Positions 15,549-48,533 are shown, counted from the first letter of the stretch. The stretch is DNA of 64,000 nucleotides from a virus (IMGVR_UViG_3300025934_000015:32001-96000); one strand, 5' to 3'. The notes: a model not told the origin generated them from the sequence alone. Made by a program: numbers and translations.

Positions 15549-15745
15549 TCATCGTTCCCACGAGTACCGACTTGTGCCGGGCCCTGGAGGCGGAAGGCTT
15601 TCCGCTGCCGGACGAATGCGCGGACGTTTCCCTGCGCATGCCCGCCGACGGGGTCTTTCAACTGGTCTACACCGTGAACGTGAGCGGGACACGGCTTCAG
15701 CAACTCGGTCGCGCCCTGGAGCGCGTCGGCAAGACTCATGAGTAA
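15545..15745 (+). CDS. hypothetical protein
   Basis: GGAG RBS; ATGA coupling. Confidence 0.55.
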   Translation: MIIVPTSTDLCRALEAEGFPLPDECADVSLRMPADGVFQLVYTVNVSGTRLQQLGRALERVGKTHE

Positions 15746-22687: not shown

Positions 22688-23541
22688 GTCTCCTCCTTTT
22701 CTGGTCGCCACGCGCGGCAACAGGTGTTTACACCTATGACGGCGAGATTGCGTGTCAGTCGAGCGTCACGGCCCTCGTTGTCGCCCTGGTGGAACCCGTC
22801 ACGGCGATCGCCGCGCAGTCCACCGTCTCGTCACCGGTATCGTTTACAGCCGTTCCCGACGCGGTGATCGCGGCGCAGTTTGGTGTCGTCTCACCATACA
22901 GCTTCACGCACGAATTCGTCACGGCAGGCGAGATTGCGGCGCAGTCTACGGTGGAATCGGCGTACAGCTTTACGCCCTCGAACACGATTGAACTGATCGC
23001 GCGTCCCGGTATCATTTTGACGACGGGACAGGCAGGTCTGACGTATACGCCCGTGGCACGGCCGGACACGGGTGGTGGGGGCATGGCGTGGCCCACGCCG
23101 CAGCGTGTACGTCGCGTACGCCCGCGCGAGCGTGTACCCGTCCTCGTGCATCGGACAATCGTCGCGCGCCCCGCGCGCGTACGCGTGCATGGCTCGGTCT
23201 GCGCATTCTACTTCCGGCGGTCGATCGTCGCCGGACCAGGGACCGTGACGGTTCGGGGCGGGGCCGTCACGGGCACGCTGGTCCGCGCCATCGTGGCCGC
23301 GCGCCCAGCCGGTCGCCAGCCGGTCCCGGCGGTCCGTGGGACGTTCCAGCGGACCATCCTGGCCCGTCCGGTCATGGTCCTCAGCCGCGCGTCTGGGACG
23401 GTCCAGTACCAGTCCGGGGTTATGGCCCAGGTTGGCCGGGTCTTGACCAGTGGCGCGCCTGCAACGCTCACCATCTCCAAACACCCGCGCTACGAAACGA
23501 TGTTCGCTGACGAGGAGTGGCTGCTCATGGAGGTCGCATGA
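22684..23541 (+). CDS. putative virion protein (acidic N-half, Arg-rich C-half)
   Basis: MSLLLFW start; IAAQS repeats; IVA[RG]P repeats; DEEWLL end. Confidence 0.6.
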   Translation: MSLLLFWSPRAATGVYTYDGEIACQSSVTALVVALVEPVTAIAAQSTVSSPVSFTAVPDAVIAAQFGVVSPYSFTHEFVTAGEIAAQSTVESAYSFTPSNTIELIARPGIILTTGQAGLTYTPVARPDTGGGGMAWPTPQRVRRVRPRERVPVLVHRTIVARPARVRVHGSVCAFYFRRSIVAGPGTVTVRGGAVTGTLVRAIVAARPAGRQPVPAVRGTFQRTILARPVMVLSRASGTVQYQSGVMAQVGRVLTSGAPATLTISKHPRYETMFADEEWLLMEVA

Positions 23542-25679: not shown

Positions 25680-28600
25680 TTCAACTGCCACTGTCCCCAG
25701 ACGTCGGCGCGCGGGTGCTTACCCAGGCACTCCTGCGGCTTCGTCTGCTCGGCGGTCCCGGCAGTGGTAACTTCGGGCACAGTGGACGCCCGGGCGAAGT
25801 GGGCGGCTCCAGTGGTGAGCGACAACCCCAGGGCGATGAGGAAGACAACGATCTCAAGGCGCGTACCTTCTTCCATGGCACGCACTCGCTGAGTGTGCAG
25901 GACATTCTCCAACAGGGACTGTTAGTCGGCCATGCGGGGAAGATGTGGCCGAGTTTCTCCTCGCGCGAACATACATACATCACGACCGACCACGACAACG
26001 CGGAACACTGGGCCGAGTCGGCGGTGCAGAAAATGAAGATTGATCACCGGGATGCGGAGATCTATCCGGTGATTTTGACTGTGCGCGTGCCGCCCGAGTA
26101 CGCGCGACGTGTGGTGCAGGATTCCCACTTCCCTGAGCCCGGATCCCCGGCGCGGCAATTCAAAGGCAACATCCACCCCTCGTGGATCATCGGCGCGAAG
26201 ATGGGTGCGTGGGACGATGATGCGGACGGCATTGTATGGAAGGACGTATCGCGGTCGTCCCCGATGCCACGCGCCGCGGCGGACGCCGACACGATTATCC
26301 ACATTGTCCTGTTGCTGACGTCGAAGAAGTTGCGGACAGCCGGTGGTCCTGGCTCGGGCAACTTCGGCCACAGTGGACGCCCAGGACAGGTGGGCGGTTC
26401 TAGTAGCGCATTGACGGATAGCACAACGCATCCGGCCGACATGTCCTTCGAGCAGTTCCAAAAGCCTGTGCCGTTGCCTCCCGTTCCGGAGGGCCATATT
26501 CGGCTGTCGCATGTGACGTCCGCCGAGAATGTGCCGAACATTCTGCGCGAAGGGTTAAAGCAGTCCAAGTCGAAGGGGGCGTCCTACGGCGAGCCGAGTG
26601 TAGTCTGGGCCACGACGCATGGTGAGACGTGGGGCGGCGCACTGGACGCCAACGCCCGCGAAATCATTTTTGACATGCCGACGAAGGACGTCAGCAGTGC
26701 GGGCACACTGCATCGCATGGCGGATGTGCCGCCAGAGGCGATTGTCTCGGTGGAGCGCGCGGGATTTAGCGATGTGTCCACCGGCGCGTTGACCCTCCGG
26801 CAGGAACGGAAACACGAGGATCTGAACACGCGACGCCAGTACTGGGAAGCCTACCAGCGCGAGAAGCCCAAGTCGCCCCTGCCGTTCCGTCCGCCCGGCG
26901 TCTACGACGAGAAGGGGCGGTTGATTGCGCCGGTACAGTCGCAGCCGCACGCGCGGCCGTCCGGCCCGTGGGACATGAACCGTGCCGCCGGAGGTCCTGG
27001 CTCGGGAAACTTCGGCCACAGCGGACGTCCCGGACAAGTCGGCGGATCGACGTCTGGCGACGATGCGCGTATTGATAACCTCGAATCCTTCGACAAAATT
27101 CAGGTAGGCGACTACACGGTCCGTCGGGACATGTATGGCATGTGGGTCGTGTACAACGACCACAGTCACGCCGCGTTTGAGGATGCGCAGGGTGCCAAGC
27201 TGTACCTGCGGTCCAAACAGACGGCCGTGAACGCCGACCCGCATACGCTCGACGTGCCCGTGTCCATCTACCACAATTCGCCAGACCAGTTTGCGGAAAA
27301 TAAACCCACGTTTGGTGCGTACTTCGGGGATGAGCATTTCCTTAAGGCGTTTCCGAATGAATGGGGCGAGCACACGTATAAGGTCACACTGCCGAAGGGC
27401 AGTAAGGTGTTAGACCTGGGTAAGGATACGCCTGAGGCCCGGGAGTTTATGGCGACCGTGGCCGGGATTGCGTATCCGAAGGATCCTGGCATTGCGGACT
27501 GGCAAGCGCGACTTCGACAGGGCGATCCTGCGGCCAGTAGCTACGATGAATTCTACGAAGCGTGGACAGATAAGAAAAACATCCTCGGTGCGTTGAAACA
27601 GCACAAGGGCTACGATGCGGTCCGCTATCAGTCAGAGTACGTGTTGCCACCAGAGACCCTGAAGAAACTCAAGGGCACGAAACTGAAGACGGCGGAAGTG
27701 TTCAGGACGCTCGGTGGATCGGGGTCCGGTAATTTCGGCCACGCGGGACGGCCGGGTGAAGTTGGGGGATCGGTAACAGAGGGTGGACCTAACGGGGAAT
27801 CGGAGCCATTACACGCGGGCCCGCGTATTGGATTTGTAACCCCGACAGGTCAAGAACGTGTCGCTAGTAAAACCAGTGGCGGTATTGGTGGTTACGGTGA
27901 AGACCATACGGATCTTGCACGACGGTTGATGGACGATGAGAACGGCGGCGTACAACCGGCATTGAAACAGGGGTACTTACGCTATTGGGTGCGTAATGGC
28001 GAGATTGCACTCAACTTTAAGTCTGGTCAACCAAATACCGCATCTAACGCTCTTCGATTCATCAAGGAAAACGTTCAGGACGGCGATCGCATTTACCTCG
28101 ACATTGAACATCCCCATGGCGATAACGTTACGCTTGGAGGATTCTTCGACAACCCTCGTGAAGCCAATCAGGCGATCCGTCGTGCAGGTGGACTGAAAAC
28201 ACTTGGGGGCCCTGGCTCCGGTAACTTCGGCCACACCGGACGGCCCGGCGAAGTCGGCGGCTCCTCGGGTGGTGAACTGGGTCCGCGTCCAACGCCCATC
28301 AAGGTGTCGAAGGTCAAGGACGCCATCCCGCTCATCCTCCAGGGCAAAGTCGTCGAGCTGCCGAACGTCCGCAAGGTCAATGTGCTGATGCAGCGATTGG
28401 CCAAGATCGCGAAGGACGCCAAGCGACAGGGTAAGGACGCGCCCTCGTATGATGCGTGTCAGATCGTGGTGCCGGGGTCCAATATCTTCTGTGGTCAGCA
28501 CCTTGTGACCAAGGAATACCCTAACGGCATGCCCCGCATTGTCATGCCGCAGTTTGCTAGTGAACCGATTCCTGGAACGCCTGCCGATAAACTGCCGCGC

Positions 28601-31600
28601 GATGCGAAGGGAGTGGTCGATGCGGGTCCGGAATTTATTGATCATCTGGCATCACGCGGTATCACGAGTACACGTGTGGACGTCCCCTCGGCGTCCCTGC
28701 GGCCCAGTCAGGCGCAACTCGACGGTCCCAAAATCGCCAAGCGCATGGTCCAGAAGGACTACCGGCCCAGTAGTCCGATCTTTATCTCACGTGACGGTTA
28801 CATCGTGGATGGCCACCACCGTTGGGCAGCCGTGGTCGGCCGCGACGCCGAAGACGGACACTTAGGCGACTCCACGATCCGCGCCTACAAGATTGACGCG
28901 CCGATCAGCGAGATCCTGAACATTGCGAAGACCTGGACTAAGACCTTTGGGCTCGAACAGAAGGGGATTGGGCGCGCGGCTGGTGGACCCGGGAGCGGGA
29001 ATTTCGGCCATAGCGGACGGCCGGGTGAAGTCGGTGGATCGTCCAGTGAGGGCGGATCAGCCGTCACGAAAAGTACGCCGTTCAAACGATGGTTCAAACA
29101 ATCCAAAGTCGTCGACGCGGAAGGCAAACCGCTGGTCGTCTACCACGGTACGACGCATGACTTCGACACGTTTGAACCGGCGGGCTCGGATAAGTACAAC
29201 ATCGAATCCGACTTCGGCGCAGCCGCCTATTTCTCCAACTCCGCGTCGGATGTATCCGAAAACTACGCAGGTGTAGGGCCGGATCTCACGAGCCGTCTGG
29301 AACAGCGTGCCGACCAACTGACGAGCGAGAACGACGAGCTGGATCATGAGGCCGCACTGAAGCAGGCGCGCGAGGAGTTAGTGGGCCGGAGCGGCGCGCT
29401 GGGCGTGCCCGTCTATCTGTCGATGCAAAACCCCTTTGTGCTGGGGGACGCGTACGACGAGGATCATCCGGTCAAGGAAACCTACCTCACGCACGAGTAT
29501 GTCTACGACGATCCCAATGACCCCGATTCTGACATCGTGGGTGAGGAAGGCACGCTCGTCGACTTTATCACCGCGTTGAAGGATGAGGCTGGGCAGTTCC
29601 ACGATACCGAAGGCGTTGATGACTTCCTGACGAAGTTAGCGGATAACAGCTTTGATGGCATGCACGCCAGTGAACTCGACAAACTGTGGCGCACCACGGA
29701 AACGACTGCCTATGTGACCGACGATCAGGGGCGGCTGGCAGGCAACGAACTCTATCGACGTGCGCTGGAGCGCGCAGGGTTCGATGGCGTGATTGACCGC
29801 TCGGTCGATACGAAGTTTGGCTCGGCACGGCGCATTGGTAAGCAGATGATCGGTGTGACTGCCGATACCGAACATTACATCGTCTTCAAACCCCAGCAGA
29901 TTAAGTCCGCTATCGGGAATCGGAAGTTTAACCCGAAGAGTCCCGTGATCACGCTCGGTGGTCCGGGCTCCGGCAACTTCGGTCACGCCGGACGGCCCGG
30001 TGAAGTCGGGGGCTCTGGCGTAGGCGACAGTACCGCGCACTTACCGGAATCGGTCGCGTATGTCCTGCGGGCGCGCGAACAGAAATTAAAGGAACTTGAC
30101 TACGAAGCCGCCGCTATTCTCTCACCTACGGGCGAGGTGGTGAATTATATCTCCAGTTACGCGAAGGACTACATCACGATCGATGAAAAGTTGAAGCCAA
30201 GTTTGGCCGATACCATCTTTACCCACAATCATCCGGGCAGTAACGGTCTGAGTCTGGCGGACGGCGACGTGGCGGTTAACCTGAATATCCGCGAGATACG
30301 AGCGATTGGCGCGGATGGGCGTGTGCATAGTCTGCGACGCGAGGGCGACCGTTGGCCGGACAATTTTATGGCCCTGGTGCGTGTGGCGGACTATGAAACG
30401 CAAAAGACCTTTTCTGAGGAGATCCGCGCCGGACACATGACGATGCAGGAGGCCAATGCGAAGCACTACGATCATGTGTACGCAACGGCTGTAGCAAAAA
30501 TCCCTGGTGTCGCGTTCGTGATGGCTCCCAGTCTGCCGGTGGTCTCGGAGGTCCATGTCTGAGATCATTTTGATTGACGATCGTGAGTTCCGGATCCCGG
30601 TCTACACCGAGGAGAGTGTCCGCACACTCGGCGGTCCCGGCTCGGGCAACTTCGGCCACAGCGGACGCCCTGGCGAGGTGGGGGGCTCCGCGCCCGAGGA
30701 CGGACCGGCCATCGGTGGCAGCATCCGCGCGCAAAAAGAGGAAGGCGTGCGCCGCGTCGAAGCGCTCCTCGACAAGGCGGTCAAGTCGGCGGACTTTACG
30801 GTCGCGGGTGACGAGAGTTATACCGAAGACGATTTGACCTGGAGTGATTTCTCCAGTACGCAGCAGGATCGCGCATTTGAAAATTTCCGTGACCAGTCCT
30901 ATAACGAAGGCGTGGAGGTTGATGATAGCGAGATCATCAGTGACCTCTACAAGGACTTATACCGCGATAACGAGAAGGTCGTCGAGGAGGCTTCACAGAA
31001 GTTAATCGACGACATCAATAATCCGGAGTCCACGGTTCAGGCGTTTCAGCAGACGACCGAACTGCCGTTTACCACGGAGAGTGGCGAGCCCGCGCCGGTG
31101 GTGCAGCGGTTCTATCTCGATCCCGACACGATCGAAGCGGAAGAAGATACGGGCGATGGCGCGCCCCTCAATGAGGACGCCCTGCGTCTGACCAATGGTG
31201 AGGAGCTGACGCCCCAACAAAAAGAAGCCGTGGACATGCTCTGGTCCCATCACTACGAAGCGGAGATGGACAAGGCCAAGGAGCGGGTGACCGAGAGTGA
31301 CGAATACTCCGAGCGCCGCAATGAGTTAGAGTCTGAGGAGATCGATAGTCAGTGGAATAACATGTCCGACTCGAAGAAGATCGACTATCTCGATCAAAAC
31401 GACAAGGACGCTGCACTCGAAGAGAAGGCTGGTACCGGAACTGAAACCTTAGACAACTCCGAACCCGATAACTGGATTGTCGATACGGAAGTCGAGGAAT
31501 CCACCGGCCGCGCCACGGATGAGAGCAAGCGGGAGGACTACGACAAGACCCGCATTCTCGCGCGGAAGCTGGCCGAACTGCGCACATCGGAGATCCTAAC

Positions 31601-33584
31601 TGAACGCGGGTTAAGTACGACGGGCGCGGCGGACATTCCCCGCAGTGTGTGGGAGGCGTGGAAAGGATCGTCGACGAGCGACTTAGGATTGGCATTGCAG
31701 TTAGCCGCCGCGGAAGAACTCGGTGGACACCATCGGCTGAATGAGCGGGAAGTGAGTCACGCACGACAAATCGCGGATCAGCAATTTGGTATTCAGGTGC
31801 CGTTTGCAGATTTACCCAAGGCAACACAAGATCAGGCGCATGAACGCTACGTACGTGAATTTGCGGACTACGAGGTGCAGAGTTTCAAAACGCAAAACGA
31901 TAACGCAAAAGTGCCCTACACCGAAGCCGATGTCCAAGCCTACCGTCAGAAGGCGGAGGATCGGTGGGAAAAAGGGTGGGAGTCACTGTCTGGATATGGT
32001 AAGACGCAGTACGCGAAGGAAAAAGGTCTGGACCAGAATCAGTCCGGCATGGAGCGCCTGAAAGCCTACACCCGCGCGCAGTGGGAGACTACGCAATTCC
32101 TGATGGAGAAGGCCGAAAAGCCCTACGCGGAAGTCTATCGCGGTATCATTCTCCCCAAGGACGATCTCGACAAGACCACCAATCTGACGGTCCCGCATCC
32201 TGATCGACCGACATTCGCGACCGACGCCGATCGTGAGAAGTACGAAAAGTATTACAAGCAGAATCTGCCGGACTATGTGCAGCTCCCGGATATCGAGATC
32301 AAACGCAATGGTGCATCATCCACGTCATCGAATGCTGACGTGTCGAATAATTGGGGCGGCGCGGGTGGGTGGAAGGAACAGCCTCGGGGATCACAGCGCG
32401 TGGTCCTGCGCTTCCAGGCTCCGGCCACCTCGCTGATTTCGATTCCGGTGTTTGGCCAGAACCTGCACAACGAATCCGAGTACGTGCTGATCGGCACGAA
32501 GGACAAATGGAACTGGGACGCGTGGCGCGGCAAGGCCCCCACGTTCGAGCAGCATCCGATTGGCGGACGAAAGGTGTCTGGCGTGAAAGCGGCGGAAGAA
32601 AAGAAAATGCTCGTCATCGACATGGCCGAGCACGACAAGGGCCCGCACTGGTTGACCGAGTACCGGGACCAGCGCGCGAAACCCCGCTATGCCAAACGTC
32701 GGCCCGAGACGGCTGTCCACGCCGCGGCCGATGCGCATGTCGAAGTGATGCGGTCCGCGGCGGTCAAGGCCTTCAAGGCTGGACGCGCGGCGTTGAACGT
32801 GCCGCTCTTGCGGTCGGCACTGACCTCAGGCAATCGGACCAGGGCAGTCAAGGCCGTGGCTGCTGTCCCTGGTGCGATCCGCGCGAGCCTCCTGAAATCG
32901 TTGCCGGGTCTGCTGTTGAAGATGGCCGCGAAGGGCGGACAGGCGAGCCTCAACACCTTGCGCGTGCGTACGCGCACGATCCGGCATGCCGAACGACGCG
33001 CCGCGCGTGCGGCCGGTCTCGCAGAACCCCGCTACGCCGCCATCGAGTTTGACTGGGGCTTCGATGACAGTAATCCGCGCGCCCAGAAGTGGGCCCGTGA
33101 GCACGCCGCGGAGTTGGCTAAGGGCATTTCCGACACCACGCGGGACGATATTGCGGATGCCCTGGTCGCCGCGTTCGACGAAGGCGGCGATACCAATACG
33201 TTGATTGAATCCATTAGTGAAGCTGTAGGCGACGAGGATCGAGGCGAGTTGATTGCCGTGACGGAACCGATGATCGCTGTGCACGAAGGTCAACGCGAGG
33301 CATGGCGACAGGCAGTTGACGAAGGGGGACTGCCCCCGGACGCCCAGCGCGAATGGATCACGACCGGCGACATGAAGGTCTGTCCTGAGTGTGAGTCGTT
33401 AGAGGGCACGACCGCTGACGTGGACGGGCTCTATCCGGATCCTGGCGGCGAAGGCCCACCACTTCACCCTCGGTGCCGCTGCACGGAAGGTATTGCGGCC
33501 CCGCGTGCGCGCGGGCGCGGACTCGGCGGTCCCGGCAGTGGCAACTTCGGTCACGGCGGACGCCCTGGACAGATTGGTGGGTCA
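24114..33584 (+). repeat. 12 dispersed in-frame copies of the 20-aa tag GG[PS]GSGNFGHxGRPG[EQ][VI]GGS
   Basis: 60-nt copies start at 24114, 24531, 25404, 25751, 26342, 26990, 27713, 28205, 28982, 29957, 30630, 33525; third codon positions vary freely. Confidence 0.97.
25676..30562 (+). CDS. polyvalent head-module protein B: four ART-like domains, one ParB/Srx-like, one JAB-like, one unknown; 7 tag copies
   Basis: FHGT..I..GL; HVT..N..I..EGL; YHNS..GAYF..GYD..EY; VYHGT..YF..GFDG..VF.P.QIKS; DGHHRW; E..THNHP..S..D. Confidence 0.85.
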   Translation: MIQLPLSPDVGARVLTQALLRLRLLGGPGSGNFGHSGRPGEVGGSSGERQPQGDEEDNDLKARTFFHGTHSLSVQDILQQGLLVGHAGKMWPSFSSREHTYITTDHDNAEHWAESAVQKMKIDHRDAEIYPVILTVRVPPEYARRVVQDSHFPEPGSPARQFKGNIHPSWIIGAKMGAWDDDADGIVWKDVSRSSPMPRAAADADTIIHIVLLLTSKKLRTAGGPGSGNFGHSGRPGQVGGSSSALTDSTTHPADMSFEQFQKPVPLPPVPEGHIRLSHVTSAENVPNILREGLKQSKSKGASYGEPSVVWATTHGETWGGALDANAREIIFDMPTKDVSSAGTLHRMADVPPEAIVSVERAGFSDVSTGALTLRQERKHEDLNTRRQYWEAYQREKPKSPLPFRPPGVYDEKGRLIAPVQSQPHARPSGPWDMNRAAGGPGSGNFGHSGRPGQVGGSTSGDDARIDNLESFDKIQVGDYTVRRDMYGMWVVYNDHSHAAFEDAQGAKLYLRSKQTAVNADPHTLDVPVSIYHNSPDQFAENKPTFGAYFGDEHFLKAFPNEWGEHTYKVTLPKGSKVLDLGKDTPEAREFMATVAGIAYPKDPGIADWQARLRQGDPAASSYDEFYEAWTDKKNILGALKQHKGYDAVRYQSEYVLPPETLKKLKGTKLKTAEVFRTLGGSGSGNFGHAGRPGEVGGSVTEGGPNGESEPLHAGPRIGFVTPTGQERVASKTSGGIGGYGEDHTDLARRLMDDENGGVQPALKQGYLRYWVRNGEIALNFKSGQPNTASNALRFIKENVQDGDRIYLDIEHPHGDNVTLGGFFDNPREANQAIRRAGGLKTLGGPGSGNFGHTGRPGEVGGSSGGELGPRPTPIKVSKVKDAIPLILQGKVVELPNVRKVNVLMQRLAKIAKDAKRQGKDAPSYDACQIVVPGSNIFCGQHLVTKEYPNGMPRIVMPQFASEPIPGTPADKLPRDAKGVVDAGPEFIDHLASRGITSTRVDVPSASLRPSQAQLDGPKIAKRMVQKDYRPSSPIFISRDGYIVDGHHRWAAVVGRDAEDGHLGDSTIRAYKIDAPISEILNIAKTWTKTFGLEQKGIGRAAGGPGSGNFGHSGRPGEVGGSSSEGGSAVTKSTPFKRWFKQSKVVDAEGKPLVVYHGTTHDFDTFEPAGSDKYNIESDFGAAAYFSNSASDVSENYAGVGPDLTSRLEQRADQLTSENDELDHEAALKQAREELVGRSGALGVPVYLSMQNPFVLGDAYDEDHPVKETYLTHEYVYDDPNDPDSDIVGEEGTLVDFITALKDEAGQFHDTEGVDDFLTKLADNSFDGMHASELDKLWRTTETTAYVTDDQGRLAGNELYRRALERAGFDGVIDRSVDTKFGSARRIGKQMIGVTADTEHYIVFKPQQIKSAIGNRKFNPKSPVITLGGPGSGNFGHAGRPGEVGGSGVGDSTAHLPESVAYVLRAREQKLKELDYEAAAILSPTGEVVNYISSYAKDYITIDEKLKPSLADTIFTHNHPGSNGLSLADGDVAVNLNIREIRAIGADGRVHSLRREGDRWPDNFMALVRVADYETQKTFSEEIRAGHMTMQEANAKHYDHVYATAVAKIPGVAFVMAPSLPVVSEVHV

Positions 33585-34028
33585 TCTAGCGATGATGAAG
33601 GGGATGACGAAACGCCCGCCACGACCATTAGTGGGAAAGACCTTAAGGAAAACATGACCGGCGATCTGGCAGCCGTGGCCCAAAAGGTCTACGACGAGTG
33701 GCAGGTCGATCCGAATCAGCCGGAGAACGATGACCTCTGTGGTGGTGGGATTTGTCATCTGATTGCCGATGAAATGGTTGGCCATCTGTCAGACAAAGGC
33801 ATCGAGGCAACCACCGTCAGCTCGCAGATTGGGGAACAGCATGTCTGGGTCGTCGCGAAGTTAGCAGATGGTGTGTACTCCATCGACATCCCGCCCGGCA
33901 CGTACGAAACGGGCGGCGGTTATTCGTGGCAGAAAATTCCTGACGTGACGATCGATAAGCGGGACGTCGTGGTGGATCTCGTCTCTCCGAATCCCGAGAA
34001 GTTCACCGAGTTCACCGACGAGGGTTAA
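30555..34028 (+). CDS. MuF (SPP1 gp7-like) minor head protein C fused to an R-S-E ADP-ribosyltransferase and a C-terminal Cys-His-Asp domain; 2 tag copies
   Basis: YRG...SSTS...ESEY; WITTGD.KVCPEC..LEG...PPLHPRCRC; GICH...HVWV...ID. Confidence 0.88.
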   Translation: MSEIILIDDREFRIPVYTEESVRTLGGPGSGNFGHSGRPGEVGGSAPEDGPAIGGSIRAQKEEGVRRVEALLDKAVKSADFTVAGDESYTEDDLTWSDFSSTQQDRAFENFRDQSYNEGVEVDDSEIISDLYKDLYRDNEKVVEEASQKLIDDINNPESTVQAFQQTTELPFTTESGEPAPVVQRFYLDPDTIEAEEDTGDGAPLNEDALRLTNGEELTPQQKEAVDMLWSHHYEAEMDKAKERVTESDEYSERRNELESEEIDSQWNNMSDSKKIDYLDQNDKDAALEEKAGTGTETLDNSEPDNWIVDTEVEESTGRATDESKREDYDKTRILARKLAELRTSEILTERGLSTTGAADIPRSVWEAWKGSSTSDLGLALQLAAAEELGGHHRLNEREVSHARQIADQQFGIQVPFADLPKATQDQAHERYVREFADYEVQSFKTQNDNAKVPYTEADVQAYRQKAEDRWEKGWESLSGYGKTQYAKEKGLDQNQSGMERLKAYTRAQWETTQFLMEKAEKPYAEVYRGIILPKDDLDKTTNLTVPHPDRPTFATDADREKYEKYYKQNLPDYVQLPDIEIKRNGASSTSSNADVSNNWGGAGGWKEQPRGSQRVVLRFQAPATSLISIPVFGQNLHNESEYVLIGTKDKWNWDAWRGKAPTFEQHPIGGRKVSGVKAAEEKKMLVIDMAEHDKGPHWLTEYRDQRAKPRYAKRRPETAVHAAADAHVEVMRSAAVKAFKAGRAALNVPLLRSALTSGNRTRAVKAVAAVPGAIRASLLKSLPGLLLKMAAKGGQASLNTLRVRTRTIRHAERRAARAAGLAEPRYAAIEFDWGFDDSNPRAQKWAREHAAELAKGISDTTRDDIADALVAAFDEGGDTNTLIESISEAVGDEDRGELIAVTEPMIAVHEGQREAWRQAVDEGGLPPDAQREWITTGDMKVCPECESLEGTTADVDGLYPDPGGEGPPLHPRCRCTEGIAAPRARGRGLGGPGSGNFGHGGRPGQIGGSSSDDEGDDETPATTISGKDLKENMTGDLAAVAQKVYDEWQVDPNQPENDDLCGGGICHLIADEMVGHLSDKGIEATTVSSQIGEQHVWVVAKLADGVYSIDIPPGTYETGGGYSWQKIPDVTIDKRDVVVDLVSPNPEKFTEFTDEG

Positions 34029-35210: not shown

Positions 35211-35363
35211 ATGGGATTACTTGAAGTGTTGATCCTTGTGATCTTCCTGCTATGGCTGGCAGGCTTTGGATTCGGCGTGGCCGGATCCTTGATCCACGTC
35301 CTGCTGATCCTTCTAATCATTCTCGTCATTGTGCGATTACTTCAAGGACGGAACGTACTATGA
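35211..35363 (+). CDS. lmo0937/DUF5670-like small membrane protein
   Basis: LLWLAGF....GSLIHVLL.......RLLQGR signature; GAGGAG RBS. Confidence 0.75.
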   Translation: MGLLEVLILVIFLLWLAGFGFGVAGSLIHVLLILLIILVIVRLLQGRNVL

Positions 35364-37579
35364 TCAAAAAAGAGGGCGAGAAGTGGATCCTCTATACCAA
35401 AGACGGATCCAAGAAACTCGGCACGCACGATTCCGAAGGCGACGCGAAGAAACAAGAAGCCGCCATCGAAGCCAGTAAGCATCGTGCGGCAGCGGACGCT
35501 GAGCACTTTCGCGCGTTGGTGGCGAATCTCGATGTGACCACCCTGGCGCGGAAGCCGAACAAGGACGAACACCCCTTCACGTACTGCATGCAGGTCGTGG
35601 TTCCGGCCATCGAAGAGAAACAGGGCGCGATGGACAATCCGGAGGCGTTCTGTGGCTGGTGGAAGGGCGAGCACGCATACGAAGCCGCGCAGGCCAAGAC
35701 CCTGGAGGGTAAGGAGTCTCGCACGGTCCATCTGATGGGCGCGACCGGTCAGATTCGCACGGCGACGTTTGAAAACAAGGATTACATGGTGGTCCCGGTC
35801 GTGGCCCTCATGGAGGGCGTGATTCACGCCATCAACGCCGAAACGCCGGAGTACGTGCCGCTGGCGTGTCTCGCGTGCGCGCCGCAGGGATGGGACGGTC
35901 GCCCGGTGGTCCTTGGCCATCCCGTGAGAGACGGTCATCAGATTTCCGCCAATTCACCAGAAGTCCTCGAATCGCAGTCCTTTGGTCGAATCTTCGGTGC
36001 GCGCCTCGACGGCAAGAAGTTGATGCTGGAGGCGTGGATCGATCCGGTCAAGGCGGAGCGCATCGGCGCGCAGGAGATTGTCACCAAGCTGCGCGAAAAC
36101 AAGATGTGCGAAGTGTCCGTCGGAGCCTTCGTGGTGACGGACAAAACCGCAGGCATGTATGGCGACAAGCCCTACAAAGCAGTCTGGCGGGACATCGTGC
36201 CGGACCACTTGGCCTTTCTCCCCAAGGGCATTGGTGCGTGCAGCAACGAAATGGGCTGCGGATCCCCGCGGACGGCCATGGCCCATCTGATTACCGCCGA
36301 GGGCTTCGAGACCTTGGCGTTTCCCTTCCAGAAAAAGGAGGACACCGCGGACACCGATTGGGCCGCGAAAGCCGATGCCGCTGAAGCGGCCGCGACGAAA
36401 GCGGAGAAGGCGGGAGATACCACCGAAGCGGCTAAGCAACAGAAGTTGGCCAAGGAGTATCGAACGAAGGCCAAGGCCATGAAGGCTGCACAGTACGGCG
36501 ATACGCCAAATGAAGCAGCCTCCGAGGAGAAGGCGGAGCTGATTGCCTACCAGACCATGCGCACGCTGTGCGACCAGATTGGCGAGTCGTACGATGCCAT
36601 TTCCGAAATCGTCGACGAGCTGATTGCCGACGAAGCCGACAACCCAACGCAGACTCCCGCCGAGGAGGCTGCGGAAACCGAAGTGGAGACCGCTCGGCTG
36701 GAGTCGCTACAAGTGCTGTGCATGTCCCAGTACAGCACGCTCAACGCCCTCATGAGTCTCACCACGGATTGTCTGCGGCCGGAACCGGCACCAGACGTGG
36801 CTCCGCGGTACATGGCGGGAGCACGCCACTCCGCCACCGATCGACAAATCATCCAGCGCGTTCACGACCACGCGGTGTCGTTGGGCGCAGAGTGTAGCGG
36901 CATGGAGGCCCGAGCCGCTGAAACACCGCGTGCCGATTCATCCACGCAACAGCCGGTCCCCGTACCGGCGGAGGTACGAGACATGGCTTGCACATGCGGA
37001 AAAACCACAAAAGGAGAGGCGATGAACAAGGAGCAGCGTACGGAACTCATCAAGACGCTATGCGCCGACAAGCATAGTGGGTTCACCGAAGCCGATTCCA
37101 AGATGTTGGAAGCGGCTCCCGACGAACGACTCGAATCCTTCCGTGTCGCTGCTGCGGCGCGGGCCAAGGAGGTCGAGGAGAAGACCAAGCCCGCGACCGA
37201 ACCGGCACCGAAAGTCGCGGAATCGAAGCCCCTCACCGAGGACGACTTCATGAAGGTCGCCCCGGATTCGCTCAAGTCGCTCATCGCCCGCGCGCAGGCG
37301 CAGGATGCCGCCCACAAGACCACGCTCGTCGCGGACCTCAAGACCGCGCAGAGCGAGTACTCGGAATCGGAACTCGCGGCTATGTCCATCGACGCCCTGG
37401 AGCGTCTGAGCCGCGCGATCGGCCGTCAGGTCGAGCAGCCGACGTCGTACGCCGGGCGTGGTGTGCCGCGCGCCGCTGCCGCGCCGGAGAAGGACGTGTA
37501 CACGAATCCGCCGAACCCCTACGAAGAGGGGCTGAAGAAGCTGCGCGCCTCCAGCGGGTTCGCGGAACAGACCGCGTAA
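35360..37579 (+). CDS. DUF2213-like prohead protease/scaffold
   Basis: PVV..MEGV, PVVLGHP, EVSVG, PDHLAFLP..IGACS...GCG; acidic helical scaffold C-terminus; upstream of decoration and capsid genes. Confidence 0.85.
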   Translation: MIKKEGEKWILYTKDGSKKLGTHDSEGDAKKQEAAIEASKHRAAADAEHFRALVANLDVTTLARKPNKDEHPFTYCMQVVVPAIEEKQGAMDNPEAFCGWWKGEHAYEAAQAKTLEGKESRTVHLMGATGQIRTATFENKDYMVVPVVALMEGVIHAINAETPEYVPLACLACAPQGWDGRPVVLGHPVRDGHQISANSPEVLESQSFGRIFGARLDGKKLMLEAWIDPVKAERIGAQEIVTKLRENKMCEVSVGAFVVTDKTAGMYGDKPYKAVWRDIVPDHLAFLPKGIGACSNEMGCGSPRTAMAHLITAEGFETLAFPFQKKEDTADTDWAAKADAAEAAATKAEKAGDTTEAAKQQKLAKEYRTKAKAMKAAQYGDTPNEAASEEKAELIAYQTMRTLCDQIGESYDAISEIVDELIADEADNPTQTPAEEAAETEVETARLESLQVLCMSQYSTLNALMSLTTDCLRPEPAPDVAPRYMAGARHSATDRQIIQRVHDHAVSLGAECSGMEARAAETPRADSSTQQPVPVPAEVRDMACTCGKTTKGEAMNKEQRTELIKTLCADKHSGFTEADSKMLEAAPDERLESFRVAAAARAKEVEEKTKPATEPAPKVAESKPLTEDDFMKVAPDSLKSLIARAQAQDAAHKTTLVADLKTAQSEYSESELAAMSIDALERLSRAIGRQVEQPTSYAGRGVPRAAAAPEKDVYTNPPNPYEEGLKKLRASSGFAEQTA

Positions 37580-37622
37580 GTTCACACGAAGTCGTCAACA
37601 TCTCACGAGAGGACACTGACAC

Positions 37623-38060
37623 ATGGCTATTGTGAAGTATCCGCCCAACACCATCTGGCTCGGTGGCGGCATGACGGTCGTCAACGACGTCGCCGCGGGC
37701 GCGGCGTTCAATCCGGGCCATCTCATCGAGCGCTACAACTCGTCGGGCACGCCGCTGTTCCGCAAGCACTCCACCGCAGGCGGCGCGGCAGCGGCGATCT
37801 TCGGCCTGAACCAGTCCATGCTGAACAAAGGCGTGGATGACGCGTACGCAATCGGTGACCTCGTCGAAGCGGGCATCATGGCCAAGGGCGCGCTGGTCTG
37901 GGCGCTCATCGGCGTGCTGACGGTCGTGCAGGGCGACAAGCTGGAGTCAGCGGGCAATGGCACGCTGCGTCTGCTGGCCGCGGGTATTGCCATCGCCATC
38001 GCGGCGGAAGGCAAGGTTGGCGCCTCGGGTGAAACCCGCGTGCGCGTCGAGATCCTCTAA
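37623..38060 (+). CDS. head decoration/cement protein
   Basis: Ala/Gly-rich; PGHLIE, AYAIGD, GDKLESAGNGTL; between scaffold and MCP. Confidence 0.75.
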   Translation: MAIVKYPPNTIWLGGGMTVVNDVAAGAAFNPGHLIERYNSSGTPLFRKHSTAGGAAAAIFGLNQSMLNKGVDDAYAIGDLVEAGIMAKGALVWALIGVLTVVQGDKLESAGNGTLRLLAAGIAIAIAAEGKVGASGETRVRVEIL

Positions 38061-38090
38061 CCTCTCACGCTGCGAAAGGACACATACGTT

Positions 38091-39077
38091 ATGAGGTTTC
38101 AAGTCAACGATCACGATCATCCGCTCCAGACCGCGCTCCTGCGGGCAGCGGAACAGACAGGCGAGCTGTCCATCGCATCGCTTCGGTCACTGTCACCGCT
38201 TTCCGATAAGGCCCAGGTACTCGTCGACCGTGCGGTCGTCAGCGTGGGCCTTCAGCGCCTCGTCGTCGCGGCCGACGTCATGGCGGCAGGCCTGACCTAT
38301 CCGCTCACCGATCCGTTGTCGGTGACACAGCTCGAATGGGAATCCATCTCGAAGACCGGCGGGGCACAGCGCACCATGAACCCGTCGGCGCGTGGTGAAT
38401 TCCAATTGCCCAACCGTTCGATCAATCGGCTGCCGATTTATCTGACGACCGACGACTTCAGCCTTGGCATTCGCACGCTGAAGATGTCGCAGCGCGTCGG
38501 TCAGCCGCTCGACACGACCCTGGTGGAACAGGCGACGCGCCGCGTCAACGAGGCCATCGAGGACGCGATGATCAACGGCTCGGGTCTTGTCGTGGGTGGC
38601 TACGGTGCGCCTGGCATCTTGAACGCGCCGAATGCGAACACGTACGACATCACGGTGAACTGGAACGCGGGCGCGACCGGCGACCAGATCCGAGTGGATA
38701 CTATGGCGATGATCAGCCTGTTGCAGGCCGATCTGAAGTTCGGCCCGTACAACTTGTACGTCGGCACGGCGTATGGCAACGCGCTTACGGCCGACTTCAA
38801 GGCCAATGGCGATAAGTCCATCATTGCCCGCCTGCAGGAAATTCAGGCCGGTGGTCGTGGTCTTCAGATCAAGGTGGCGGACCAGATGCCGACGACGACG
38901 GTCGCGCTGATCCAGATGACCAGCGACACGATCGAAATGGTCGTGGGTCAGCCGCCCACGGTCATTCCATGGACCAGCCTTGACGGGTTCACCCTCTTCT
39001 GGTTGGTCATGGCCATCATGGTCCAGCGCGTGCGCTCGGATTACGACGGCAACTCCGGCATCGTTATCGCCACGTAA
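38091..39077 (+). CDS. major capsid protein (HK97 fold, encapsulin/linocin-related phage family)
   Basis: VDRAVV.V...RL..AAD....GL; LP......F.LGIR.L..S; FGPY.LYV; RSDYDGNSGI; AAGGA RBS. Confidence 0.88.
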   Translation: MRFQVNDHDHPLQTALLRAAEQTGELSIASLRSLSPLSDKAQVLVDRAVVSVGLQRLVVAADVMAAGLTYPLTDPLSVTQLEWESISKTGGAQRTMNPSARGEFQLPNRSINRLPIYLTTDDFSLGIRTLKMSQRVGQPLDTTLVEQATRRVNEAIEDAMINGSGLVVGGYGAPGILNAPNANTYDITVNWNAGATGDQIRVDTMAMISLLQADLKFGPYNLYVGTAYGNALTADFKANGDKSIIARLQEIQAGGRGLQIKVADQMPTTTVALIQMTSDTIEMVVGQPPTVIPWTSLDGFTLFWLVMAIMVQRVRSDYDGNSGIVIAT

Positions 39078-39143: not shown

Positions 39144-39908
39144 ATGGCCGATCAGAATCAGGGCCAGACTCAGGGCAAGCCCGGCGACAAGCCGAAGGCC
39201 ACGTCACCGGAAGATCGTCAGAAGGCGCAGAAGGAAGTCCAGGATCTGCGTCAAAAACTCCAAGAGGCCGAGACGCGTCTGGCCGAAACCGGCGACACGC
39301 GACAGACGACGGCTGAGGAAGACCTGAAAATGTTGCAGGACCGCGCGCAGTCCCAGCAGGTACGCGTGGTCGGCAAGCCGGGCGGACCGTTCACGATCAA
39401 CGGTCAGGGCTTTGGCAATTCGTCCGGGCAGGCTCCGTGGCCGGGTCAGGTGATCATCGCTGGTCGGGCCGTGCCGATCACGTCGTGGCGTGACGGCAGC
39501 ATCAAGGGCACGTTGCCGCCGGATCTGCCCGAGAAGGGCGACGTCGAAGTCACCATCAACTCCGGCGCAGCCACCGGCAAGGAACAGAAGATCAAGGGGC
39601 AGTGGCCTGCGCCACGGCCGGTCCTGAACGCGCAGGGACAGGTCCAGATCAAGCTGGCCAACGGCCAGATTGTGTCGGGCGAACTCGTGCGCGGCGATCT
39701 GTCGGCACAGCCGGGCGCGGCCCCGCCGTATCTGCCGGGCGCGCAGGGCGTCCAGGGCGGCGGACCCGACATGAATCCGCCGCCGGGATCCACGGGCACC
39801 ATGGCCGGACAGACGGTCGGCAGCGCGCCGTCCACGGCCACGGGTGGACCGGCGACGGGCGGTGCCGCAGGCGCGTCGCAGCCTCAGCACAAGACCGAAA
39901 ACAAGTAG
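39144..39908 (+). CDS. Gln/Gly/Pro-rich protein with central IPT/TIG-like domain
   Basis: FTINGQGFG...ITSW.D.SI...P....G.VEVT. Confidence 0.7.
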   Translation: MADQNQGQTQGKPGDKPKATSPEDRQKAQKEVQDLRQKLQEAETRLAETGDTRQTTAEEDLKMLQDRAQSQQVRVVGKPGGPFTINGQGFGNSSGQAPWPGQVIIAGRAVPITSWRDGSIKGTLPPDLPEKGDVEVTINSGAATGKEQKIKGQWPAPRPVLNAQGQVQIKLANGQIVSGELVRGDLSAQPGAAPPYLPGAQGVQGGGPDMNPPPGSTGTMAGQTVGSAPSTATGGPATGGAAGASQPQHKTENK

Positions 39909-45116: not shown

Positions 45117-48100
45117 GTGGCTGAAGGTGGATTCCTCGACATCGGCACCCTAACCGGCACCATTGAACTGGATGACCGTCTCACCGGCACGTTTGAGACG
45201 GTCATCCATAGTATCGAGAAGTTCGGAGAGGACTTTCTCGGATCGTTCAAGGGGATCGCGTTAGGACTCGGCCTTGTGACCACGGCCTTGACAGGCATGG
45301 CCGCAACGATTAGCACGTTGGCGGTCAAGGGGTCCGAGATCAACGATGTCAAGGAAGGCTTCGACCGGTTGTCTGGTGGCGTAGAGCAGGCGGATGCCTT
45401 GATGCAGGCCATGCGTCAGGGCGTGGTCGGAACGATTAACGATCTCAATCTCATGCGAGACGCCAATCGTCTGCTCTCCGCGGGCGTGAAGGCGAACGCC
45501 TCGGATTTTCAAACGTTGACGACAGCCGCGCATGTGCTGGCCAATGAAGGCTATGGCAGCATTGAAAACGTGCTCGGATCCCTGAACCGGGCTATGATTA
45601 CCGGATCCACCTTCCGGATCAAACAGCTTGGCGTCTCCATCGACGCGACAAAGGTGGAACGGGAATACGCCGCCTCCTTGGGACTTTCGGCGCAGCAACT
45701 GACACGCGAGCAGACCCTGGAGGCCATGCGTGGAGCGATCCTCGAAGAATTGAACAAAAAAGTACAGGCCGCGGGAGAACTGCACCTGTCCTTTGCGGAA
45801 AAGTTAGATGCGGCCCTGACGTCCCTCACCAATTGGTCGCATGAGTTAGAGTCCTTGATTGCCGCCTCGCCCAACGTCAATGCGGCGTTCGATGCGATTG
45901 CTGAGGCGATCAAGGATGCGTTTGGCACCGAAGGTCAAACGCTCATGCAGACCATTGTGGGCTGGGTCAACACGTTTGCCGACGTTGTGCGGACGTGGGC
46001 CCCACCAATCATTCGCTTCTTCGGAGAAATCAAGGATACGATCAAAACGCTGTGGAACACTATCGACGCCGCCTGGGACTCGCTGCCGGACTGGTTGAAA
46101 ACGGTGGTCAAGGACGCCACGGTTGCGGCGGGTGCGCTGTGGCTCACCGAGAAGGCGCTGGATAGTCTACTCGGTAAGGTCGCCAGTGCAAAAAATCTGG
46201 GCATGGGCGGGGAAGGCGGCGGAGGTGGTGATGCACTCGGTAAAGTCTCCAACATTGGCACCATTACATCTGCCCTGATTGATAGTGGCAATGTACTCCA
46301 ACGCATTGGTACCCGGTTAGGCGGGCTGACCGGAGCCGTAGCGACGATGGGCGAGTCGTTCTCCAAGGCGCGCACGTGGGTCAACAGTCTCGATGAACCT
46401 CTGTCGATGGTTGCGGCACGTGCGAAAGGCGCAGAAGGTACCCTGAGTTTATTCCGGAACTCCACGGTATTGACGGGCGTAGCGACTGGGAGTCTCGCTG
46501 TGCCACTGGCACTGGTCGCGACGACGATTGCGTCCTCCATTGCGGTCTATAAGGCGGCATCGGAAGCGATTGGATTGTATCATGATAAACAGGCGCGGTT
46601 AGCGGCCGACGAACGGCAGGCGCAGACCGACCGCGATAACATCAATAAGATCACCGCTCTGACGGGCAAGACCTACACCAATCTTGCGGACGCGGTGAAG
46701 GACGCCAACAAATACATCGAGGAGCATAAGGGTAAGTGGACGGCTGCCCAAAAGGCGGAAGAGGCTGCGAAGGCCATTGCGGAAGCGCATACCAAGTCGG
46801 TGGATCAGATTGTCATGTCCCTGGCCGCGCAGGCCACGCACATAGACGAAACGGTGGACGTCTTCAACAAACTGACGACGACCCAGAAGTTGAATCGTGA
46901 TGTGCAAGACGATTTGCTCAAGCGCATGGAAGCGCAGATGGAACACGGTCAGCGGTTGACCGTGGAGCAACAGCAGTACTACGAAATGATCACGCGCAGT
47001 CGCGCCGCCGACGTGGCGTATGCTGCCGGGAAGTTAGTCCTGGATGACGTCACGAAACAGTCAATTGTTAACCTCCGCGAGCTGAATAAGTCAGAGGCCG
47101 AGATCGCACAGGCCCTGGGCCTGACCACCGAACAGGTTCGCAACGCGCAAAAGCCTTTGTTGGAGCGCATTGCCGCCCTGGAACGGGAAGGTCTCAGCGA
47201 AGCGGCCATCAACGAACGGCTGGGCGTGAATGCGGCCACGCGCGCGAAGGTGACTGAGGAGATCAAACGTCAGCAGGACGCACAGGACATGCTGACGACC
47301 TCGACGGATAACTACAATCTCGCCTTGAGCCACGGTAGTTTTACCGCGTGGAAAAAAGATCAAGACGACAAGATGGCAATTGAAATCCGCAACCTTCGGC
47401 AGTCCAAGGAGTGGACGCAGGAAAAAGAGGACGCCATCCAACAGAAGTACCGCCAGACCACCGATGTCAAGAAGATGCAGGACCGCGAGGCCATTGAGGG
47501 GTCGAAAGACGCGGCAGTAAAGGAACGCGACTTCGCCAAAAACAAACTCGACACGATGTTAGACGATATTACCAATTTCCACGCGGAGGACGTACAGGCC
47601 GCGCAACAGGATTACAACGAGAAAGCACGGGCGGTCGAGCACTGGTCGGCCTCGGCCTCGGAGGCCGAAAAGAAAGCGGCGGAAGCGGCCAAGCAGGCGT
47701 CCGACGAACGGATTGCCGCCCTCAAGAAGGAAATGGACGCGCAGCAGGAATGGGCGGATCATTGGCATAGTCTGACCGTCACGATGACACGCGAACAGGC
47801 GGAAGCGATTGCCAATACCAGCGGCGGTGATATGTGGGCCGAGTTCTTCCGAGCCGTAGCTCGTGCCTCGATCAAGGCGCTGGACGAAGCGGAATTGAAG
47901 GCCAGCATGGCGCAGTTCCGGACCCGTCAGGAACTCCAGAAGACTGCCGAGTTAGCGAAGAAAACCTACGATGCAATGTTGGCCGCTGGTAAGTACACCG
48001 CGGAAACCCTGCAAGAGGCGTGGAAGCGGTACACCGATGCCCAGCAGGCCGCACTGGGACAGGCCAAAAAGACCGCCGAAGAAACGATGGCGGAGTTAGC

Positions 48101-48533
48101 GGAGTCCGCCGGATTCAAAACGCGCGACGAGCTAGCGAAGTTAGCCGACCAAGCTAAACGGACATACGACTTTATGCTGGCCTCCGGGAAGTACACCGCC
48201 AAGGAACTGGAGGATGCGTGGAAGCGCTACACCGATGCGCAGAATGAAGCACTCGGGGCCACAGCGGAGACAGTTGCGCAACTGACGGGCGGCACGCCGT
48301 CTGCGCCTCGTCGACCGGGCAGTGGCGGCACACGCGGCGAGTTTCTTCCAGGGATTCTCGGCACGTCCCCGATTGCGCGCTCGGGTAAAGTGGTAAACGT
48401 GGGACCGGAGCCCACAGTGCAACAGATCAATAACTTTAACGTCAACGGCACCGACGAGCAGAGCGTACGGAAGATGAGCGAGATGGTTATGAAGAACCTA
48501 CGCGTGGCTCGTTTCCTGCCGAGTCACGGCTAA
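45117..48533 (+). CDS. tape measure protein
   Basis: 1138 aa, Ala-rich and helical; follows the chaperones; DIGTL.G.IELDD N-terminus. Confidence 0.9.
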   Translation: MAEGGFLDIGTLTGTIELDDRLTGTFETVIHSIEKFGEDFLGSFKGIALGLGLVTTALTGMAATISTLAVKGSEINDVKEGFDRLSGGVEQADALMQAMRQGVVGTINDLNLMRDANRLLSAGVKANASDFQTLTTAAHVLANEGYGSIENVLGSLNRAMITGSTFRIKQLGVSIDATKVEREYAASLGLSAQQLTREQTLEAMRGAILEELNKKVQAAGELHLSFAEKLDAALTSLTNWSHELESLIAASPNVNAAFDAIAEAIKDAFGTEGQTLMQTIVGWVNTFADVVRTWAPPIIRFFGEIKDTIKTLWNTIDAAWDSLPDWLKTVVKDATVAAGALWLTEKALDSLLGKVASAKNLGMGGEGGGGGDALGKVSNIGTITSALIDSGNVLQRIGTRLGGLTGAVATMGESFSKARTWVNSLDEPLSMVAARAKGAEGTLSLFRNSTVLTGVATGSLAVPLALVATTIASSIAVYKAASEAIGLYHDKQARLAADERQAQTDRDNINKITALTGKTYTNLADAVKDANKYIEEHKGKWTAAQKAEEAAKAIAEAHTKSVDQIVMSLAAQATHIDETVDVFNKLTTTQKLNRDVQDDLLKRMEAQMEHGQRLTVEQQQYYEMITRSRAADVAYAAGKLVLDDVTKQSIVNLRELNKSEAEIAQALGLTTEQVRNAQKPLLERIAALEREGLSEAAINERLGVNAATRAKVTEEIKRQQDAQDMLTTSTDNYNLALSHGSFTAWKKDQDDKMAIEIRNLRQSKEWTQEKEDAIQQKYRQTTDVKKMQDREAIEGSKDAAVKERDFAKNKLDTMLDDITNFHAEDVQAAQQDYNEKARAVEHWSASASEAEKKAAEAAKQASDERIAALKKEMDAQQEWADHWHSLTVTMTREQAEAIANTSGGDMWAEFFRAVARASIKALDEAELKASMAQFRTRQELQKTAELAKKTYDAMLAAGKYTAETLQEAWKRYTDAQQAALGQAKKTAEETMAELAESAGFKTRDELAKLADQAKRTYDFMLASGKYTAKELEDAWKRYTDAQNEALGATAETVAQLTGGTPSAPRRPGSGGTRGEFLPGILGTSPIARSGKVVNVGPEPTVQQINNFNVNGTDEQSVRKMSEMVMKNLRVARFLPSHG

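Follow-up and report, generated by a model that had tools for sequence, protein, structure and literature searches.

A predicted DUF2213 head-maturation protease joined to its scaffold and a candidate Ala/Leu cleavage rule for its own chain and for tagged cargo in an uncultured virus

Overview

We analysed a 64,000-nucleotide stretch of DNA (IMGVR_UViG_3300025934_000015:32001-96000, hereafter the window) lying inside a 120.8-kb record of an uncultured virus, in which a head-gene module encodes a portal protein, three cargo polyproteins, a DUF2213 protein predicted to be a head-maturation protease joined to its own scaffold, and a major capsid protein (MCP). Our main proposal, to which we assign a probability of about 50%, is that this protease follows a single cut rule and with it processes its own chain, its scaffold, the tagged cargo, probably the portal and perhaps the MCP. 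The rule would read, from position P4 to P1, a hydrophobic residue, Arg or Lys (sometimes Glu), a small residue and Ala or Leu, with the cut falling after the Ala or Leu. A first-pass annotation of the window had taken the simpler motif [RK]-x-[AL] for the specificity of the prohead protease, and that idea stands in part: it agrees with the residues before the cargo tags, with a site just past the protease fold, with the scaffold tail and with the portal N-terminus, and it finds no support in the count of the loose motif, in most of the scaffold sites or in LRSL|SPL of the MCP.

The proposed cuts were ranked from 1 to 5 by their support. The first, just past the protease's own fold at PRTA and/or FETL, would free the protease, and the second, at a PRAA that has 33 residues behind it, would separate the scaffold and the shell. 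The third would fall before each of the 12 tags in the three cargo polyproteins, and individual enzyme modules would thereby be freed within the head. The fourth would probably lie in the portal N-terminus (LRAA-TS), and the fifth perhaps in the N-terminal extension of the MCP, where the bond 20|21 (LRAA-EQ) is likelier than 34|35 (LRSL-SPL).

The predicted protease

The protease-scaffold gene was delimited within a longest open reading frame (ORF) of 775 codons (35252-37579), along which residues are numbered here; its probable start is Met37 at 35360, and this start is kept in a related locus (L001). The product matches the Pfam DUF2213 model over residues 222-326 (25.1 bits against a gathering cut-off of 22, E 1.9e-05), a domain for which we counted 6353 representative relatives at E <= 0.001. 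An AlphaFold2 model based on 87 sequences has a core with a predicted local distance difference test score above 95, and the top structural match of this model is T4 gp21 (5jbl; Z 12.0, root-mean-square deviation 3.2 over 140 of 164 residues, Foldseek probability 1.00), followed by herpesvirus proteases (Z 7-8.7). His223, Ser289, Asp318 and His319 are invariant columns in the 87 sequences and candidate catalytic residues; the resulting order His-Ser-His agrees with the Ser-His-His triad of the herpesvirus protease (PMC4498786).

A PDB sequence search with the protease-scaffold gave no match, and only the fold search found relatives of known structure; no NCBIfam model matches the protein. Peptidase_S78 and ClpP matched nowhere in the 120.8-kb genome, in which DUF2213 is the sole protease candidate found. 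RefSeq labels the DUF2213 proteins of phages PB1 and T1 'head maturation protease', and a literature search on DUF2213 returned no paper on its function. The DUF2213 protein, a predicted head-maturation protease of the T4 gp21/assemblin fold joined to its own scaffold, would be the prohead protease that the first-pass annotation had postulated.

The same chain contains conserved cysteines that may form a metal site or a disulphide. Cys330 and Cys336, in GACSxEMGCG (36239-36259), are invariant, and further conserved cysteines occur upstream in FTYCM and FCGWW (35580-35660) and downstream in a CxC that precedes the scaffold part.

A conserved tetrapeptide before the cargo tags

The three cargo proteins share a tag of about 20 residues, GGPGSGNFGHxGRPGxxGGS, each of whose 12 copies follows x-[RK]-x-[AL] or a similar tetrapeptide (IRTA, LETL, ARHA, LRLL, LRTA, NRAA, FRTL, LKTL, GRAA, VITL, VRTL and GRGL); the ETL previously reported upstream of tag copy 2 is indeed present. 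We extended the sample to 91 related loci from viral contigs, which together with the window gave 75 distinct tag contexts. P1, the residue directly before the tag, is Leu in 49 and Ala in 26, that is in all 75 copies, whereas P3 is Arg in 42 and Lys in 20 (83%); P4 is hydrophobic in 80%, and P2 is mainly Thr or Ala. These figures show the tetrapeptide upstream of the tags to be a genuine, conserved unit. In addition, a second tag type of unrelated sequence found in relatives (SNPEGxNQYT / IGNGNNQYT) also stands after the same kind of tetrapeptide, and the motif can therefore be considered an element in its own right. The tag lies C-terminal to the putative scissile bond and would be retained on the cargo if the chain were cut there.

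A full-text literature search with the strings of either tag (GSGNFGH-type and GNQYT-type) returned no relevant paper. In the relatives, the SNPEGxNQYT / IGNGNNQYT tags mark inserted modules (L008 6743-9355; L007 7473-8795; P0122-P0266), some of which are small SH3-like inserts between protease and scaffold. The tail of a related portal, that of locus L006 (2170-4263), contains R-A-L-G-G-P-G-S-G, a degenerate form of the tag, and an additional domain lies C-terminal to it, which indicates that cargo can be fused to the portal too. None of 10 cargo modules matched a peptidase family in searches to E 0.5. The final module of the 1628-residue cargo protein (30041-30559), which has no Pfam match to E 0.5, contains H-N-H-P-G-S-x-x-L-S-x-x-D, and we take its H-N-H-P-G-S to resemble the motifs of JAB/RadC metallopeptidases.

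Sites in the protease-scaffold chain

The strongest support for the motif as a cut site comes from alignments of the protease's own chain. Across the family the protease fold ends in GACSxxMGCG-x-x-R-x-A, with the Arg at most 7 residues from MGCG in 145 of 146 representatives and Ala at P1 in 137 of those 145. PRTA (339-342) is the window's version of this post-fold R-x-A and stands 13 residues beyond the last residue aligned with gp21. In one homologue (P0265) the post-fold R-A-A runs directly and in register into the tag, and in three others (P0213, P0221 and P0183) the tag lies a few residues further on. A second unit, HL(V/I)TAEGFE(T/A)L, usually occurs downstream of the post-fold R-x-A and ends in the window with FETL (352-355); the tag starts exactly past the last Leu/Ala of this unit in at least 7 homologues (P0122, P0123, P0166, P0194, P0250, P0172 and P0256).

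At the other end of the chain, most family members share the tail consensus G-R-G-x-P-R-x-[A/L], a short spacer and PPDPY. Among 70 anchored representatives the Arg is present in 61; at P1, 34 have Ala and 12 have Leu (46/70), and the median number of residues after P1 is 27. The window's PRAA (739-742) is followed by 33 residues, and its tail carries PPNPY. This C-terminal motif, N-P-P-(D/N)-P-Y after PR-x-[A/L], is widely conserved (tails of P0121-P0270). By likeness to the C-terminus of the herpesvirus scaffold (PMC4498786), the end of the window's scaffold would be a candidate capsid-binding end, and because the MCP is encapsulin-like, N-P-P-(D/N)-P-Y may be a shell-binding peptide comparable to the cargo-loading peptide of encapsulins.

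The first-pass annotation had listed nine tetrapeptides in this protein, starting at residues 77 (HRAA), 86 (FRAL), 148 (AKTL), 339 (PRTA), 352 (FETL), 410 (MKAA), 553 (ARAA), 696 (LKTA) and 739 (PRAA), and had placed them at apparent domain edges. All of them, like those it had listed in the MCP and the portal, are found where it located them. Comparison with homologues agrees with a domain edge for PRTA, FETL and PRAA and speaks against it for LKTA, which is part of a conserved helix; for AKTL, MKAA and ARAA the edge stays a presumption. The single close relative that shares the region of HRAA and FRAL keeps both of these, and it does not keep AKTL and ARAA. Most of the nine come out of the comparison without backing as cut sites.

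A small module at the N-terminus of the protease protein (35360-35500), (E/G)G-K-W-x-L-Y-(T/S)-K-D-G-S-(K/R)-K-L-G-x-H, belongs to phrog_3684. In six relatives (P0179, P0193, P0212, P0252, P0260 and P0264) it is C-terminal instead and follows E-L-R-A-A or I-R-T-A; judged from these sequences, it looks like a mobile module bounded by an R-x-A-type motif.

Frequency of the motif

We tallied the loose motif [RK]-x-[AL] in the 59 ORFs of the window and the 152 ORFs of the genome, where it occupies 2.15% and 2.29% of positions, respectively, against 1.86% predicted by composition. Shuffling within each protein gave 21.1 expected copies for the 25 of the DUF2213 protein (P 0.18), 5.0 for the 5 of the MCP (P 0.59) and 12.5 for the 17 of the portal (P 0.10). 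A tail-region ORF of 1138 amino acids (45117-48533) is as dense in the motif as the scaffold (3.25% versus 3.23%). The enrichment in head proteins that the first-pass annotation looked to is absent for the loose motif, in line with its own caveat that R-x-A is frequent in high-GC proteomes and that the argument lies in position and not in count.

A stricter form, [LIVMFA]-[RK]-[TASG]-[AL], was derived from the tags, and its counts were compared with 2000 shuffles in 25-residue blocks, which preserve local composition. The portal has 4 copies versus 1.37 expected, the DUF2213 protein 9 versus 2.72 and the MCP 3 versus 0.76; pooled, these three head proteins have 16 versus 4.85 (3.3-fold), a value reached by none of the 2000 shuffles, whereas the other 143 ORFs have 81 versus 71.3 (1.14-fold). 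The strict form omits the best-conserved sites, in which P4 is Pro. We regard this enrichment as supporting evidence at most for the proposed rule.

Sites in the portal and the capsid protein

The portal, whose gene lies outside the interval 35360-38200 to which the motif had first been assigned, contains MKTA (21-24), LRAA (26-29) followed by TS, and ARAA (519-522) followed by AD. We compared 36 distinct homologues at 40-55% identity; about 33 of them have h-[RK]-x-[LA] (h, hydrophobic) and then small residues 22-25 residues before a conserved F-x-G-x-R-D-x-Y-x-x-L-G-Y, and the region upstream varies freely in length and sequence. A conserved site position behind a variable upstream part fits a trimming site, and from this alignment LRAA-TS is a plausible predicted trimming site, although it may instead be structural. 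The N-terminal copy listed by the first-pass annotation is conserved, and the tail copy, ARAA followed by AD, is not.

The MCP has LRAA at residues 17-20, followed by EQ, and LRSL at residues 31-34, followed by SPL. We collected 120 homologues at 60% identity or more, a set in which the whole N-terminus is well conserved, with Leu31, Arg32 and Pro36 present in 120 of 120 and Arg18 in 114. A profile of the MCP N-terminal region aligned Arg32-x-x-x-Pro-Leu with RNAAPL, residues 6-11 of the solved encapsulin 9i8e (E 0.018), collinear with the match of the full-length MCP (E 0.0013). The MCP model matches encapsulin shells with Z 20-24 over 250-265 residues and places its residues 28-37 on encapsulin residues 2-12, so that the fold already takes in Arg32 and the extension comprises residues 1-27 only. 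To our knowledge, encapsulins have no maturation protease. Against the family 1 encapsulin model NCBIfam NF041155 the MCP scores 36.6 bits, with a cut-off of 100; its encapsulin-like fold notwithstanding, the gene is that of a phage capsid protein and stands among head genes.

The second site reads L-R-T-N or F-R-A-N in a distant MCP clade, Brevundimonas phage StAshley and Halorubrum phage Hardycor1, and at least 10 related loci that keep Ala/Leu in the R-like protease site and the portal site have Asn at its P1; we found no co-variation of the second MCP site with the protease and portal sites, which counts against it. Because of the encapsulin alignment, the superposition and the Asn at P1, the Arg of LRSL-SPL appears to be ancient and probably structural, and its P1 shows no tag-like constraint. 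LRSL-SPL probably came with the encapsulin-like fold as a structural motif, and its proposed role as a cut site just before the conserved core is doubtful. LRAA-EQ, on the other hand, is kept as h-R-x-[AL] in 11 of 11 close loci and becomes degenerate in the distant clade. The MCP model has low confidence for residues 1-10 and 26-36, and its first confident helix begins at Pro36. Between the two maturation sites suggested for the MCP N-terminus, LRAA|EQ is the better candidate, since it lies inside the extension that encapsulins lack, and LRAA-EQ is the likelier predicted cut; both capsid sites are much less certain than those of the protease and the tags.

It could be argued from these data that only the copies linked to tags and protease are functional and that those of the MCP and the portal are ordinary structural features, such as helix starts or salt-bridge arginines. 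The alignment of the MCP R-x-x-[SA]-P-L with RNAAPL and its superposition on the encapsulin fold are what this explanation would predict, as are the Asn at P1 in loci with Ala/Leu elsewhere, the chance-level count of the loose motif and a second portal copy, FLRAAG (residues 39-44), which is part of a conserved core helix. We nevertheless hold it to be unlikely, given that the portal copy marks the junction of variable N-terminus and conserved core in most homologues, that the MCP has two copies in a 35-residue extension for which about 0.1 strict copies are expected, and that the phages T1, E217 and Pa193, treated below, suggest N-terminal trimming of MCP or portal in phages with this protease family.

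Alternative roles of the motif and points against cleavage

Motif and tag might also act together as an uncut docking or capsid-targeting peptide that binds the scaffold, the portal or the shell interior, the polyproteins being packaged and ejected whole. In its favour, the tag is always joined to the motif, even when an N-terminus is 7 residues away (MSTMKTL-GG, P0210), and full-length delivery has been noted for some polyvalent proteins (Iyer et al. 2017, PMC5512222). We consider this docking role very unlikely, as in most family members the motif also closes the protease fold and recurs near the scaffold C-terminus with no tag attached, two unrelated tag types carry it, and a 1628-residue chain of seven unrelated modules would be hard to use uncut. 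Still less probable is processing at another bond (one within the glycine-rich tag, for example) or by a peptidase of the host or the cargo, with [RK]-x-[AL] as a neighbouring recognition element: the tag is far more conserved than the motif, the JAB/RadC-like string of the cargo could be invoked and in relatives of the protease family Asp apparently precedes the cut (T1 MCP, K-Q-D|A), but the cargo modules match no peptidase family, the Leu/Ala found at P1 in every tag copy has the strictness expected at a scissile bond and the herpesvirus relatives of the fold cut after Ala.

Several observations weigh against the proposed Ala/Leu cut rule itself. The loose motif does not exceed its background frequency in window and genome ORFs, and the strict form was set post hoc, after inspection of the data. 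A non-head ORF of 714 amino acids outside the window (genome 15181-17325, minus strand, about 14.7 kb before the window) is also rich in the strict motif, with 7 copies versus 1.5 expected, which means that the strict motif can be enriched outside the head proteins too. The conserved HLVTAEGFE comes after the post-fold R-x-A, so that R-x-A could belong to the fold and not to a cut site. P3 is not fixed in the wider family, in which Glu, Thr and Val are also seen, and P1' varies widely among the proposed sites (Gly, Ser, Thr, Glu, Met and Ala). The second MCP site looks structural, and several portals begin just 3-6 residues before the motif, a placement that suits a structural helix as well as a propeptide. 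Finally, that the motifs are cut at all, and at which exact bonds, is what we infer, and this also has to be counted against the rule.

Comparison with known systems

A close parallel to the predicted protease-scaffold is the herpesvirus assemblin precursor (pUL26 type), which has the same class of fold, the same His-Ser-His order and an N-terminal protease and C-terminal scaffold in one chain, with one conserved site just past the protease (R) and one 20-40 residues from the C-terminus (M). In pseudorabies virus both sites are cut after Ala (YLQA-T and VQA-S; PMC4498786). Ala at P1 and a hydrophobic P4 are thus common to both systems, and the window protein has the assemblin layout at both the R-like and the M-like position, where cutting would be expected by analogy. 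Identity is only 10-17%, however, and the proposed rule differs in having a basic P3, in allowing Leu at P1 and residues beyond Ser/Thr at P1', and in that the same site also punctuates cargo polyproteins.

T4 gp21, the best structural match, offers the parallel of one protease with one short consensus, (L/I)-x-E, which trims the capsid protein gp23, the scaffold or core and packaged internal proteins including the ADP-ribosyltransferase Alt. Unlike the window protein, gp21 cuts after Glu and is not fused to the scaffold. The T4 targeting peptide stands before the cut and is discarded, whereas the window tag lies C-terminal to the proposed cut and the cargo would keep it.

Among cultured phages, T1 (gp50), PB1 (gp22) and Pa193 (gp24) have proteins of the same DUF2213 family and the same gene order of portal, MuF, protease, decoration protein and MCP; the GACSxxMGCG-x-x-R-x-A ending is absent from the domains of PB1 and T1, and no cultured DUF2213 phage has a tagged cargo array. 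The T1 MCP was modelled from residue 27, Ala27 (PMC11945409), and we found K-Q-D before this residue and K-N-D-A-A 16 residues from the end of gp50, which indicates a basic P3 and an M-like site in T1 as well, with P1 apparently Asp in place of the Ala/Leu proposed here. In the cryo-electron microscopy papers on E217 and Pa193, in which the DUF2213 protein is called a putative scaffold and a protease is not mentioned, residues 1-65 of the E217 MCP and residues 1-93 of the Pa193 portal are not visible, the latter being missing from the mass-spectrometry data as well. PB1 MCP residues 60-66 contain no A/L-type motif ahead of the first visible residue of the E217 homologue, PB1 being too distant for a test of the site. 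By analogy with T1, E217 and Pa193, it is plausible that MCP and portal are trimmed at their N-termini in DUF2213 phages, and the three cases suggest that P1 differs between DUF2213 branches.

The cargo chains recall the polyvalent proteins described by Iyer, Burroughs, Anand, de Souza and Aravind (2017, PMC5512222), long head-associated chains with ART, 2H, ParB-like and MuF domains that were predicted to be injected and to need processing. Those authors ascribed the processing to metallopeptidase domains within the polyvalent proteins, a kind of domain that we did not find in the 10 cargo modules of the window, and a term search of their paper gave no mention of linkers or glycine-rich motifs.

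We tentatively suggest, at less than even odds, that one branch of the large and almost unstudied DUF2213 family has switched P1 from the Asp of T1-like phages to Ala/Leu while keeping the basic P3, and that a single rule frees the protease, releases the scaffold, trims portal and MCP and chops three polyproteins into about a dozen anti-defence enzymes in the head. If this were true, the Ala/Leu rule would serve as a legible 'cut here' code from which the proteins of the mature virion could be predicted for thousands of uncultured phages. Should the rule hold, mature ends and released cargo modules could be read from sequence, 6353 representative clusters carrying the domain, and the R/M site layout and the Ala at P1 would tie the phage DUF2213 proteases closer to herpesvirus assemblin. 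Taken alone, the rule is a specificity prediction for a known kind of enzyme and not a new mechanism, the tagged cargo array being the more unusual part.

Layout of the head module

The order MuF, protease, decoration protein and MCP is the same in the related loci L001-L009, in PB1 and in T1, and in every related locus the decoration gene is conserved in its place between those of the protease and the MCP. The features discussed above are collected in Table 1.

Table 1. Coordinates, within the window, of head-module genes and of the proposed or reconsidered sites.
Feature	Position	Strand	Basis or remark
Portal protein	15738-17561	+	Phage_portal_3, E 7.7e-32
Portal LRAA then TS, residues 26-29	15813-15824	+	h-[RK]-x-[LA] at the aligned position in homologues
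Three cargo polyprotein genes (720, 1628 and 1157 amino acids)	23517-34028	+	12 tag copies, found by self-BLAST and listing
Cargo domains	23517-34028	+	2H/Acb1-like, ART-PolyVal, MuF
MuF gene	30555-34028	+	upstream of the protease gene
Protease-scaffold fusion gene	35360-37579	+	Pfam DUF2213 (PF09979), phrog_760
Protease core, ORF residues 165-327	35744-36232	+	His223, Ser289, Asp318 and His319 invariant
PRTA, release-site-like motif, 13 residues past the protease fold	36266-36277	+	family alignment
FETL, end of the conserved HL(V/I)TAEGFE(T/A)L unit	36305-36316	+	tags of homologues start here
PRAA, maturation-site-like motif, 33 residues from the C-terminus	37466-37477	+	tail consensus
Scaffold C-terminal 33 residues with conserved PPNPY, candidate capsid-binding end	37478-37576	+	kept across relatives
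Head decoration protein	37623-38060	+	phrog_766, E 1.6e-07
MCP, encapsulin-like HK97 fold	38091-39077	+	DUF6260 4.1e-15, Linocin_M18 3.2e-07
MCP LRAA, residues 17-20	38139-38150	+	more plausible N-terminal trimming site
MCP LRSL, residues 31-34	38181-38192	+	conserved motif, probably structural

Two small ORFs separate the cargo genes from the DUF2213 ORF. A gene for a DHH/DHHA1 phosphoesterase (14619-15548) is found just upstream of the portal gene. Downstream of the MCP gene, an IPT/TIG-domain protein with a low-complexity tail (39144-39908) may be a second surface protein.

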